A DNA stretch of 9,991 bases. Origin: a virus (Duplodnaviria > Heunggongvirae > Uroviricota > Caudoviricetes). The notes under the pieces are model-generated. The model did not search any database and was not told the origin of the DNA. It saw only the letters and a list, made by a program, of their open reading frames with translations. The first letter of the stretch is position 1. The number at the start of each line of letters is the position of its first letter. Made by a program: the position numbers and the translations under genes. Shown one piece after another: positions 1 through 9,991 of this stretch. Location of the stretch: positions 1 to 9,991 of the IMG/VR virus record IMGVR_UViG_2690316346_000015; one strand, 5' to 3'.

Positions 1-2
1 TA

Positions 3-488
3 TCATGCCTGTTTTGCGACCTCATTCACTACGTCATTTTTTACCATCCGGCTGATAATCTGATTACACAAATCGTCAATAATTGACTGCACTCTGTTTA
101 CTGCCATCGGTTTAAGCCCGGCATCACGTGCCAGAATATTGGGGAGTTTTGCCAGTTCCTCGCTTACGATTTCCCCCCATATAGCCATCTCTTTTCGCAC
201 ATCATCGGCGGGTATGAGTTGCGCCGTTTCCTGTTCGAACTTGAGGCGTTCACGTTCGGACTGATACCAGGCCTTACGGTCATGTGGCTCCATTTCTTCC
301 AGTGATGCCGGAACGGGAAGATCAAGAAAACAGGTCAGAATGTCAGTCACCCGATAGAGTTTCAGCTTGTCATGCCCTCCGGCTGGCTGGATGTTTTTCA
401 GCCTTGCCGCCGCAGTCTGACGACATATTCCCGCTATCGCCGCCAGTTGATTAATGTTCAGCATCAGATTTTTCAGTTCTCGATCCAT
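3..488 (-). CDS. terS: Nu1-like small terminase subunit (N-terminal winged-HTH); ORF extends to 575 but the SD-supported start is the ATG at 486-488
   Basis: Translation from MDRELKNLMLNINQLAAIAGICRQ... has an N-terminal HTH arrangement resembling lambda Nu1 as I recall it (MEVNKKQLADIFGASIRTIQNW...). GGAG sits 6 nt upstream of the internal ATG, and none upstream of the ATG at 575. The gene lies about 200 bp downstream of a lambda-like cos site on the same strand, as Nu1 does in lambda. Stop TGA at 3-5. Confidence 0.65.
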   Translation of the reverse strand: MDRELKNLMLNINQLAAIAGICRQTAAARLKNIQPAGGHDKLKLYRVTDILTCFLDLPVPASLEEMEPHDRKAWYQSERERLKFEQETAQLIPADDVRKEMAIWGEIVSEELAKLPNILARDAGLKPMAVNRVQSIIDDLCNQIISRMVKNDVVNEVAKQA

Positions 489-619
489 ACCCGCTCCAGA
501 ATGTTTTAAACATGCATCTTGCGAACAACTTTCAGAAGAGGTCAAAAAATGCGCTATATGTTGAGCATAAAACAAGTAAAATTAACATACCAAAAATAAA
601 AATGCTTAAAATTCAATAC

Positions 620-715
620 AATATGAAGATGATGATGACGAATGAAAATGCAAAAACTAGCCTTTTTCCGCGCCGCTCCCGCCCCGTGGCAGACCACCCC
701 ACCGGGAGGACCCGT
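620..715 (-). other. lambda-like cos site, copy A (cosQ/cosN/cosB-like)
   Basis: Minus strand reads ACGGGTCCTCCCGGTGGGGTGGTCTGCCACG GGGCGGGAGCGG CGCGGAAAAAGG...CGTCATCATCATC. This aligns closely with the lambda end junction as I recall it (ACGGGTCCTTTCCGGTGATCCGACAGGTTACG / GGGCGGCGACCT CGCGGGTTTTCGC...CTTCTTCGTCAT). The same element recurs at about 6100-6198 and 8620-8713. Confidence 0.65.
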
Positions 716-738
716 AAAAAAAGGCGGCTATCGCCGCC
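716..738 (-). terminator. rho-independent terminator downstream of the protease-capsid gene
   Basis: Minus strand GGCGGC-GATA-GCCGCC stem-loop followed by a T7 run, immediately after the TGA stop at 746-748. Confidence 0.7.
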
Positions 739-745
739 CTTGTTG

Positions 746-8753: not shown

Positions 8754-9176
8754 TTAAAACGGTATGTTATCCCCGTACGGATCATCATTCCCCGCCTGTT
8801 GTTTGGCCCTGTTCAGTGCATCAGTGGCCTGCCCCTGTTGGCCTTTTTTACCGCCCGGTCGCGCCGTTCTGGCACTGATTACACTGTCTGCGATAACCTG
8901 CCAGCCCTGCCGCGTTTCTCCGTTCTGGCCTGTCCACTGGCTTACCTGCATGTTACCCGCCACGCTCACCAGCTCGCCTTTCTGGTGCTTTGCCAGTGCG
9001 TCAGCCTGTCTGCCAAACGCCAGGACGGATAACCATATCGTCGCCGTTCCGTCATCTGCCTGGCTGCACGGCAGGGGAACCGCCATACTCGCCATCGTCA
9101 TTTGCGTACCCTTGCTGGTGGTCTTTAACTGCGGGTCAGCCACCAGCCGCCCGTAAGCCGCTATCTGTGCTGTCAT
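8754..9176 (-). CDS. ssb: single-stranded DNA-binding protein-like (OB fold with acidic C-terminal tail)
   Basis: 140-aa ORF; N-terminal YGRLVADPQLKTTSKGT and a C-terminus ending NDDPYGDNIPF, resembling the SSB DDDIPF tip. ATG overlaps the upstream gene stop (ATGA). Confidence 0.65.
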   Translation of the reverse strand: MTAQIAAYGRLVADPQLKTTSKGTQMTMASMAVPLPCSQADDGTATIWLSVLAFGRQADALAKHQKGELVSVAGNMQVSQWTGQNGETRQGWQVIADSVISARTARPGGKKGQQGQATDALNRAKQQAGNDDPYGDNIPF

Positions 9177-9418
9177 GCTGTCTGCTCTCCGGTTTTAACG
9201 TTGATGGTTGTCACCTGTTCCGCTTCGGCAATCTCCCGTTCTGTCAGCGTGGCAAAGTTTGCCGCCGTCGTGGTCATGAATGCGCTTATCAGTTCGGGAT
9301 GTGCTTTCGCGTATCCTTCCCCGGCGTTGCGGTCGATGATTTTTATCGCCACCCTCAGCCAGTGTTCTGTCAAATCAAGGGCGTGAGATTGTGGTTTTTT
9401 GGCGTGCTTCGTTGTCAC
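9173..9418 (-). CDS. hypothetical 81-aa protein, first gene of the SSB operon (GTG start)
   Basis: GAGGT SD 8 nt upstream of GTG at 9416-9418; translationally coupled to the SSB-like gene; begins directly after the iteron array. Confidence 0.45.
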   Translation of the reverse strand: MTTKHAKKPQSHALDLTEHWLRVAIKIIDRNAGEGYAKAHPELISAFMTTTAANFATLTEREIAEAEQVTTINVKTGEQTA

Positions 9419-9470
9419 AGGCTTTACCTCACAGCAATAAAATAAAATTTTTGCATTTTAACCCTTCACC

Positions 9471-9691
9471 TGTTCACCTTTTGCAATTTTCCCTTTTTAT
9501 TCATGATGTTAATGGGTTAACAGTTTCACAAAAACTATTCACCAACTGTTCACCACTGTTCACCCTTAAAGCTCAATAAAGAATCAAAAAGGTGAACAGT
9601 GAATAGTTTGGTGAACAGTTCATAAATAACTGTTCACCCTATAATATACTGATATAAAAGACATTTATTGCAGGGTGAACAGTGGTGAACA
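9471..9691. repeat. replication origin iteron array (copy 2)
   Basis: Perfect octamers at 9471, 9547, 9557, 9631 (TGTTCACC) and 9591, 9610, 9674, 9684 (GGTGAACA), plus degenerate copies at 9515 and 9536. Nearly identical to 3871-4116. Confidence 0.8.
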
Positions 9692-9721
9692 GTTATTCCA
9701 TAAGTTTAATTTTTTCCATCG

Positions 9722-9991
9722 TCATTTGTGACCTATTGCACATGATGGCATCCAGTCTTCTGAATCCTCTGTCAGGGTCACATTTGAACGCAAACCGTGC
9801 TTCGTTTTCCGTTTCATATACTCCCTGCCATATTCCGCCATTGCCCCCGGCATATCTTTACCGAAGCGCGTCAGTGTTACAGGTTTACCGAATCCGTGTG
9901 CCCTCATATATGCCAGATAGGCGTGATAAAGATACCTGCGCGGACTGAACGGAATAATTTCGGCATTACCCACTAACAGACCATCACACAT
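9722..9991 (-). CDS. P4-family replication protein, second copy; C-terminal 89 aa only, 5' end beyond the window
   Basis: Translation MCDGLLVGNAEIIPFSPRRYLYHAYLAYMRAHGFGKPVTLTRFGKDMPGAM... is near-identical to the C-terminus of the 4117-5499 protein but diverges in the last few residues; TGA at 9722-9724. Confidence 0.8.
   Translation of the reverse strand: MCDGLLVGNAEIIPFSPRRYLYHAYLAYMRAHGFGKPVTLTRFGKDMPGAMAEYGREYMKRKTKHGLRSNVTLTEDSEDWMPSCAIGHK

Follow-up and report, generated by a model that had tools for sequence, protein, structure and literature searches.

The 9,991-nucleotide (nt) stretch analyzed here, positions 1 to 9,991 of the Caudoviricetes record IMGVR_UViG_2690316346_000015 (hereafter the window), shows two related phage satellites in series, and an earlier note made from its letters had read it as a mosaic of tandemly repeated satellite modules. 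The modules are phage satellites, as that note had proposed, and both are phage-inducible chromosomal islands (PICIs), referred to here as PICI-1 (left half, 1-5493) and PICI-2 (right half, 5494-9991). Their tandem array very probably reflects a mis-scaffolded Shigella sonnei short-read draft, in which parts of two separate PICIs were joined at one undetermined base. Both elements are already-known, ordinary Gram-negative PICIs and not a new chimera.

The two halves meet at a single undetermined base

The window corresponds to bases 6990-16980 of a 26.4-kb draft contig (CXEQ01000074.1, assembly GCA_001258815.1; L017 among our comparison loci), which was found via the lineage-specific 180-amino-acid (aa) product of a HEPN-domain gene and has exactly the gene order of the window. 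The two differ by 1 mismatch in 9,991 bases, and this mismatch is an N in the contig at window position 5494, the same unstranded point at which collinearity with both parent loci ends. A single N is the mark that short-read scaffolders and gap closers leave for a join of undetermined sequence. Around it the record reads GCGCCAGTGATGANCTCACATATG; in the window GCGCCAGTGATGA is followed by ACTCACATATGAG, and the two sides have no sequence in common. On one side the join falls in the interior of a primase gene, and on the other it falls ~45 bp inside the conserved end module of an island (the edge of that module being set by the start of L001/L002 homology at 11953/11955). An attachment (att) site and a homologous crossover were both considered for the join, and both are ruled out by this position together with the absence of sequence common to the two sides.

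Each half continues elsewhere into a complete island of its own. Window 1-5494 is collinear at 99.96% with L013, which goes on through the rest of the primase gene, DUF4222, AlpA, DUF6387 and int to rcnR, and the same complete island lies between rcnR and thiM in ten long or finished contigs (L021-L030, including CP180015.1, L028); its 406-aa integrase adjoins rcnR (L013, L021-L030). Against L001, a HEPN-type relative at tRNA-Ile, window 1-5493 is 99.7% collinear with the match ending inside the primase, and the next stretch, 5494-5969, corresponds to the far end of the normal L001/L002 unit. Window 5494-9991 is 99.93-99.96% collinear, gap-free, with finished genomes L004, L005, L007 and L008 (the last being CP019689, S. 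sonnei 75/02), which run past the junction point into clpS-clpA; the island starts beside cspD, which its 412-aa integrase adjoins (L006, L010). We take the rcnR/thiM and cspD/clpS loci to be ~1.3 Mb apart, from the map of Escherichia coli K-12. CX-prefixed drafts are listed in PMC5447701 as the S. sonnei collection of Holt et al. 2012, and CP019689 appears in the same paper. In finished genomes and long contigs, then, each element is a single integrase-bounded island at its own locus, with the single-copy, previously described organization in its flanks that the earlier note had named as evidence against its tandem reading; the tandem adjacency itself exists in one public record, where its junction base is N.

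The same contig carries a second N, at base 2906, which likewise lies exactly on a collinearity break. Bases 1-2905 are a 99.83% duplicate of bases 4949-7853 (thiD, thiM, the island end, DUF1441 and part of the capsid gene); such a 2.9-kb duplicate of thiD-thiM and the island end is impossible for a single chromosome, and the island-end region is present three times in the scaffold, whereas two islands per genome is what the evidence indicates. Since both Ns lie on collinearity breaks and the two halves match separate loci, we conclude that the tandem adjacency is very probably not a genome arrangement. Other drafts of the same clone (L014, L015, L016) connect the two islands in mutually inconsistent ways, as is characteristic of misassembly caused by repeats; in sister draft L014 the identical primase base is also N, but an IS3-family end follows there.

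Alleles around the join were also compared. The base directly after the primase breakpoint is C in the PICI-1 copies of L001 and L021-L030 and A in the PICI-2 copies and in L013-type drafts, the normal continuation of primase 1 being GATGA[A/C]GCGTTATCG. At the N position the island ends differ (G in PICI-1, A in PICI-2), and the normal PICI-2 end toward clpS reads ...CGGAATTCCGCCCTCGGT[A]CTCACATATG. Less than 50 bp from the join, the window has the PICI-1 allele at 5521, a position that is C in every finished PICI-2 copy, and the PICI-2 allele at 5542; the window is a mixed consensus at these two positions. Contigs of three unrelated short-read assemblies (L034, L039, L040) end at the equivalent of window 5472, 21 nt before the join, in keeping with repeats that recurrently break assemblies at this part of the primase gene.

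The junction was also sought elsewhere. The exact junction 31-mer had no match in the genome contig collection, and the junction with a wildcard at the N had none in the genome, viral and metagenome contig collections. None of 5,426 finished E. coli genomes contained it; a 120-nt junction probe matched one half in 608 finished E. coli genomes and spanned the join in none of them (0/608), and no finished E. coli genome covered at least 80% of the window in one place. The junction-spanning open reading frame (ORF) of 460 aa is on record in no assembly, and a truncated 451-aa primase product in the tandem context is found only in CXEQ01000074.1.

A plausible route to such a scaffold starts from the long identical or near-identical stretches that the islands share (a 1,484-bp primase block and a ~470-bp island end), which would break short-read contigs and mislead scaffolding; gap closing would then presumably extend both contig ends through the repeats to differing positions and leave one N between them.

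Alternative explanations for the junction

Several points weigh against a scaffolding artefact. The window itself has A, the PICI-2 allele, and not N at 5494, and could conceivably derive from a version in which the gap had been closed; reads spanning the join are presumed to be absent. A scaffolder normally requires some read-pair support for joining contigs. Drafts L015, L019 and L020, moreover, tie the late genes of PICI-1 to clpS without any N, and there may be a true rearrangement between both islands in S. sonnei.

The defined A at 5494, and the pair support that the scaffolder presumably had, would also suit a junction that is real in the isolate, with illegitimate recombination having fused the end of PICI-2 to the primase interior of PICI-1 and the N standing for one ambiguous base call. 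IS-rich S. sonnei genomes (IS, insertion sequence) often rearrange, and IS copies lie inside these islands. In that case two iteron origins and three cos sites would stand in one composite satellite locus, and this locus might be co-mobilized, or a helper terminase might cut it into sub-genomic packaging units. We nevertheless consider it improbable: unlike ambiguous base calls, both Ns of the scaffold sit exactly on breaks of collinearity; the island end is present three times in the scaffold, and thiD-thiM twice; in L014 that contig end is followed by a different sequence; the junction occurs in no other assembly or finished genome; and a chromosomal rearrangement would be needed between loci ~1.3 Mb apart. 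Homologous recombination between the inversely oriented islands (an inversion or module swap), with the assembler having garbled a true but different adjacency, would draw on the 1,484-bp exact primase block and on a ~300-bp exact block within the ~470-bp island end, and it would account for the hybrid end alleles in N-free L019/L020 and in L017 at 1633, as well as for L015, which links clpS both to the PICI-1 late zone and to rcnR. However, an exchange in either shared block cannot put the PICI-2 end beside the primase interior, PICIs of the DUF1441 type are native at clpS in other strains and so weaken the case for an inversion, and the chimeras could come from assembly paths through exact repeats; we therefore hold this origin of the junction to be very unlikely.

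The earlier note had offered, besides modular recombination at the repeated ori and cos sequences, a tandem integration of related satellites with subsequent decay. Such a history would have two satellites entering a single att site one beside the other and later losing the intervening terS, integrase and regulatory genes by deletion. A single case of a tandem PICI pair has been published (bioRxiv 10.1101/2022.07.18.500453), and the gene order of the window does resemble two units in series, but we find this scarcely credible here. Module 2 is natively without terS, with nothing deleted; the integrases differ (70% nt), as do the chromosomal sites; no att site lies at the junction or close to it; and the halves match separate loci at 99.96%, down to the 13-bp deletion of PICI-2, an identity that long independent decay in tandem would not give. 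Taking the junction, then, as a product of mis-scaffolding, the wider implication is that genomes with at least two related PICIs sharing kb-scale identical blocks yield chimeric scaffolds in short-read drafts, and that large genome scans should check any single-N join before they score a mobile element as tandem, nested or mosaic.

Divergence between the two islands differs by module

We compared the complete islands, L013 for PICI-1 and L006 for PICI-2. The integrase genes are 70% identical (nt), the segment from AlpA through primase to the replication origin (ori) is 88.8% identical overall, including a 100% block, and the cos sites are 76% and the terminal 93-aa regions 95.6% identical; the capsid genes agree at 69% nt (61% aa), the cargo is unrelated, and DUF1441 is present in PICI-1 only. 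The earlier note was right that this is no simple recent duplication but a mosaic with very different divergence per module (integrase 70%, replication zone 89%, capsid 69%, terminal region 96%), and its figure of roughly 60 percent for the capsids holds at the protein level, the nucleotide figure being higher. Where it had called the origins and replication-protein C-termini near-identical, similarity stands but its degree was overstated (92.9% nt between the window copies). The three cos copies, which it had described as moderately diverged, are indeed 76-83% identical, with cos B 76% identical to cos A and 83% to cos C.

The exact 1,484-bp block in the primase genes of both islands spans the breakpoint and is flanked by sequence of 89-93% identity; it covers window ~4592-5493 and, beyond the window, L013 12483-13065 and L004 3619-3036. 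The block suggests recent gene conversion between co-resident PICIs in the S. sonnei lineage. At the island ends, ~470 bp are near-identical, including ~300 bp that are exact. The mosaic is thus real but typical of the PICI family, in which modular exchange is pervasive, as already published.

The late zone (capsid fusion with or without the DUF1441 TerS, and the 93-aa ORF) is exchanged among PICIs that occupy many att sites, and the exact DUF1441 protein occurs together with this late zone at tRNA-Ile/mug, thiM, clpS and others. In L043 (2618-3190), L046 (2588-3190) and L050 (2549-3190) an extra gene of the Lambda_tail_I family lies between capsid and terS, while these islands have the same capsid fusion and an identical DUF1441 protein; L049 has terS and the 93-aa ORF without a capsid gene. 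The same SSB-type backbone (primase, ori, 81-aa ORF and SSB) bears a lambda-type late zone in other strains, namely L031 (12527-15355), L036 (5575-8284) and L037 (7053-8620), made up of a Phage_cap_E capsid, an HDPD decoration protein, a second AlpA-domain gene and a Phage_Nu1 TerS, which points to wholesale swapping of late zones to suit different helpers. L035-L037 carry a TIR-domain cargo gene (CAP12-PCTIR_TIR) beside int/AlpA.

Contigs L019 and L020 (~6350-6990), L015 and L017 (~1430-2040), free of N in these stretches, tie clpS to a hybrid island end and then to the PICI-1 late zone. The hybrid end has PICI-2 alleles from -40 to +47 relative to the junction point and PICI-1 alleles thereafter. 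We take the two islands, on the K-12 map, to be inversely oriented at loci roughly symmetric about the terminus, and these contigs could represent a ~1.3 Mb PICI-mediated inversion, a module swap, or an assembly path through the 300-bp exact repeat. The PICIs of the DUF1441 type that are native at clpS in other strains are those of L043 and L045.

Features of PICI-1

Of the substantial ORFs of the window, the HEPN cargo gene is the one exception to a minus-strand location. The listed genes, cos-like sites and iteron origins of the earlier note were confirmed by ORF, Pfam and PHROG analysis and by iteron counts. At the left edge of the window, a TerS homologue of 161 aa (DUF1441; 3-488, minus strand) matches Pfam PF07278 (E=2e-35) and PHROG 141, 'terminase small subunit' (E=7e-57), and shares 67% aa identity with the TerS encoded ahead of terL in the prophage of L002. 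A sequence search of the PDB at E<=0.01 gave no match, and so no similarity to any Rpp chain in that database. We considered whether it might be Rpp; at the level of sequence this is disfavoured, as it has no match to solved structures and scores as a phage small terminase.

Upstream of terS lies cos A (576-745, minus strand; core copy ~628-727), with a terminator-like hairpin at 723-738, a core that resembles cosQ/cosN and an AT-rich stretch that resembles cosB. Next in window coordinates comes an intact 637-aa fusion of a ClpP-like prohead protease with a major capsid protein (746-2659, minus strand; Pfam CLP_protease and Phage_capsid_4; PHROG 133/4523), whose start codon is overlapped by the stop of a small conserved ORF of 69 aa (2656-2865, minus strand; PHROG 4934).

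The AT-rich cargo (GC content 0.29-0.33) holds a truncated HEPN-domain ORF of 180 aa (3012-3554, plus strand; Pfam HEPN E=1e-4). The gene encodes 237 aa in L001, L021-L027, L029 and L030, and in L001 it is annotated 'HEPN domain-containing protein'; the 180-aa allele also occurs in the finished genome CP180015.1 (L028), and it is a truncated allele specific to the lineage. No partner gene nearby, such as an MNT-type antitoxin, was identified for it.

Ori 1 (3852-4116, unstranded; iterons 3926-4104) has two iteron sets around an AT-rich spacer, with inverted repeats I1 and I7. Next to it lies the 3' part of the primase-helicase gene (4117-5493, minus strand; Pfam D5_N, DUF5906, Pox_D5), which holds the C-terminal ~459 of 605 codons and is cut off by the scaffold join. 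Replication gene 1 of the earlier note is thus truncated at codon ~147 of 605; the gene is intact at 605 aa in L013 and L001. One perfect copy of the iteron GGTGAACAGT lies at 5388-5397, within the primase coding region and ~1.3 kb from ori 1, and may be a chance occurrence or an auxiliary binding site.

Features of PICI-2

Beyond the join, a terminal non-coding region (5495-5686, unstranded) runs ~45 bp further in finished genomes and then toward clpS. It is followed by the terminal 93-aa ORF (5687-5968, minus strand; PHROG 1561, unknown function). The exact 93-aa protein adjoins clpS in finished S. sonnei genomes, and a homologue follows DUF1441 at the end of PICI-1; the ORF is the terminal one of module 2 and does not belong to module 1.

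Downstream of capsid 2, in the same position as cos A, lies cos B (6094-6222, minus strand; copy ~6111-6209), with no terS after it. The protease/capsid fusion of PICI-2 is a pseudogene (6227-8094, minus strand) in which ORFs of 381 and 252 aa are split by a 13-bp deletion at ~7031. The earlier note had called it frameshifted, and it is disrupted; the cause is this deletion, which finished genomes L004, L005 and L008 share, as they align gap-free over capsid 2. An intact fusion of 626 aa is present in L006, L009 and L010. These loci and L003, all with the capsid gene intact, likewise have no DUF1441 terS, which rules out a deletion of terS from module 2, and no TerS or Rpp candidate was found in PICI-2. 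Preceding the capsid gene on this strand is a 64-aa ORF (8091-8285, minus strand; PHROG 4934 E=4e-40), homologous to the 69-aa ORF of PICI-1 at 34% identity.

The second cos-like site of PICI-2, cos C (8611-8739, minus strand; copy ~8630-8726), lies downstream of an SSB gene (140 aa; 8754-9176, minus strand; Pfam SSB E=4e-16; annotated SSB in L002). It is also present in the single-copy element of L002 (15601-15734) and is a native part of the SSB cargo segment. An 81-aa conserved ORF (9173-9418, minus strand; PHROG 1231, unknown function) overlaps the ssb start and is always paired with SSB among the loci compared.

Ori 2 (9441-9721, unstranded; iteron arrays 9469-9693) is 92.9% identical to ori 1, and an 89-aa ORF at the right edge (9722-9991, minus strand) is a C-terminal fragment of the primase, whose gene is IS-interrupted just past the window in finished genomes; in L008 it consists of a 510-aa fragment, an IS and an 89-aa fragment. 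IS1 lies within the integrase-AlpA region of PICI-2 in some finished genomes, e.g. L004 and L008. The S. sonnei copy of PICI-2 is decayed, with an IS in the primase gene, the 13-bp capsid deletion and, in some genomes, IS1.

Iterons, cos cores and other sequence signals

The iteron decamer GGTGAACAGT matched the window 20 times with at most one mismatch, where 0.52 matches were expected and 0/200 shuffles reached 20; 9 of the 20 matches lie in ori 1, and the clusters are at 3926-4104 and 9469-9693. The three cos copies share the core GGGTCCTCCCGG..CCACGGGGCGGGAGCG.CGCGGAAAAAGGC with the prophage cos upstream of the DUF1441 terS in L002 (24120-24360), and on this homology they are candidate sites for a helper terminase. 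Terminator-like sites were modestly enriched in the window (16 vs 9.1 expected) and include hairpins beside cos A and cos B. A promoter scan found 14 candidates against a shuffled expectation of 17.2, thus no excess, and an Rfam scan of the window for CI/seqA RNAs of P4 type (C4, isrK) or other RNAs gave no match at the gathering threshold.

The 69- and 64-aa ORFs had been labelled 'RHH 1' and 'RHH 2' (RHH, ribbon-helix-helix). They have no Pfam match beyond noise at E<=5 and no sequence match in the PDB. An AlphaFold2 model of the 69-aa ORF, built from a two-sequence alignment, has an extended segment and two helices (predicted local distance difference test 66.5), and a Foldseek search of this model against the PDB gave nothing significant; the label found no support in these searches.

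Proposed life cycle

By homology to EcCICFT073, we propose that a lambdoid helper of the mEp460/Stx type would activate AlpA, that Int would then excise the island, and that the P4-alpha-like primase-helicase would replicate it from the iteron origin, after which the helper terminase would cut and package the island at its cos. For PICI-1, packaging specificity probably comes from the TerS homologue that the island itself encodes, plausibly through redirection of the terminase to the divergent cosB-like region of the island; such redirection would be analogous in effect to that by the TerS of staphylococcal pathogenicity islands (SaPIs) or by Rpp, although by sequence the protein is not homologous to Rpp. 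PICI-2 would rely on a helper TerS that recognizes its cos.

Comparison with known satellites

Gram-negative PICIs carry int, alpA and pri-rep, with two iteron sets around an AT-rich region, and accessory genes (Fillol-Salom et al. 2018, PMC6092414); they also have helper-like cos sites, lack genes for tails and lysis, and in many cases have captured a capsid homologue (PMC6092414). Both islands have an integrase at one end and a specific chromosomal site, alpA (PF05930 Phage_AlpA genes in both complete islands) and pri-rep with a two-set iteron origin, and they measure 11.3 and 10.4 kb between flanking chromosomal genes, in keeping with the ~1/3-1/4 of a helper genome expected of such islands, without tail, lysis and most head genes. 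The normal unit in L001/L002, single-copy elements of finished E. coli genomes, consists of int, a helix-turn-helix/AlpA gene, an Icd-like gene, DUF4222, primase (605 aa), ori, cargo, the small ORF, the capsid fusion, cos, DUF1441, the 93-aa ORF and the end. The late zone is ~66% nt identical to phages mEp460, cdtI, Ayreon and Stx2a-converting phages, and the capsid fusions are 57% (PICI-1) and 49% identical (aa) to the prophage fusion in L002. Judged by this homology, the late zone is captured from lambdoid helpers of the mEp460/Stx type, whose TerS is of the DUF1441 family and whose ClpP protease is fused to the capsid protein.

Islands of the EcCICFT073 type (PMC6092414; PMC6739421) are alike in plan, at ~10-11 kb with int at one end, alpA, pri-rep with an iteron ori, a capsid homologue captured from the helper, and cargo; EcCICFT073, like PICI-2, has two cos sites per island that resemble those of its helper. 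It differs in having a capsid of the lambda gpE type, a decoration protein of the gpD type and Rpp, and in relying on phage TerS, whereas the islands described here have a ClpP-protease/capsid fusion and PICI-1 has a full DUF1441 TerS homologue. No counterpart of Rpp (144-153 aa, heterodimerizing with phage TerS) was found in their sequences, the only TerS-like protein being the DUF1441/PHROG 141 one. Deletion of the EcCICFT073 capsid homologue did not relieve interference with phage lambda (PMC6092414), and bioRxiv 10.1101/2022.07.18.500453 cites deletion of this gene as tolerated.

Helper-embedded satellites (HE-PICIs; Tommasini, Mageeney and Williams; bioRxiv 10.1101/2022.07.18.500453, PMC10111431) are organized in integration, Bro, replication and late zones. 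Among the late genes that they have captured, those for capsids are the most frequent, and relatives insert into late genes of prophages, cognates of lambda gene A among them (bioRxiv 10.1101/2022.07.18.500453). Our islands share the four-zone organization, and their SSB-type relative in L002 sits inside prophage terL; those of the window, in contrast, occupy the chromosomal sites rcnR/thiM and cspD/clpS and not a prophage. The island in L002 (E. coli B1-56) splits the prophage large-terminase gene into pseudogene halves (10706-11827 and 22644-23636).

The prototype of the capsid-forming PICIs (cf-PICIs), EcCIEDL933 (bioRxiv 10.1101/2022.09.08.507074), has the same int-alpA-rep backbone and likewise a capsid and a maturation protease. 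Unlike cf-PICIs, which encode capsid, protease, portal, head-tail connectors, HNH, TerS and TerL (bioRxiv 10.1101/2022.09.08.507074), the islands here have no more of this set than the fused protease and capsid, accompanied by TerS in PICI-1 alone; the complete islands hold no portal, connector, HNH or TerL gene and thus fall outside the cf-PICI definition.

With satellite P4 they share an integrase, an alpha-type primase-helicase (D5_N/DUF5906/Pox_D5) and, as predicted for the islands, cos packaging by a helper, and the P4 iteron, which we take to be of the TGTTCACC type, resembles their iterons. Their cos and late genes, by contrast, are related to lambdoid phages and not to P2. The Psu and Ogr/Delta Pfam families were not among the precomputed hits of the complete islands, and no search for Sid was made. 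Beyond the alpha-type primase and the iterons, the islands are not P4-like. The earlier note had called the combination chimeric relative to classical P4, from which its make-up does differ; it is no new chimera, being the published architecture of Gram-negative PICIs (PMC6092414; bioRxiv 10.1101/2022.07.18.500453). SaPIbov5, as cited in PMC6092414, is similarly a cos-packaged satellite with a homologue of the helper major capsid protein (Ccm). Unlike the islands here, it is Gram-positive and unrelated in sequence, and its Ccm is known to redirect capsid size.

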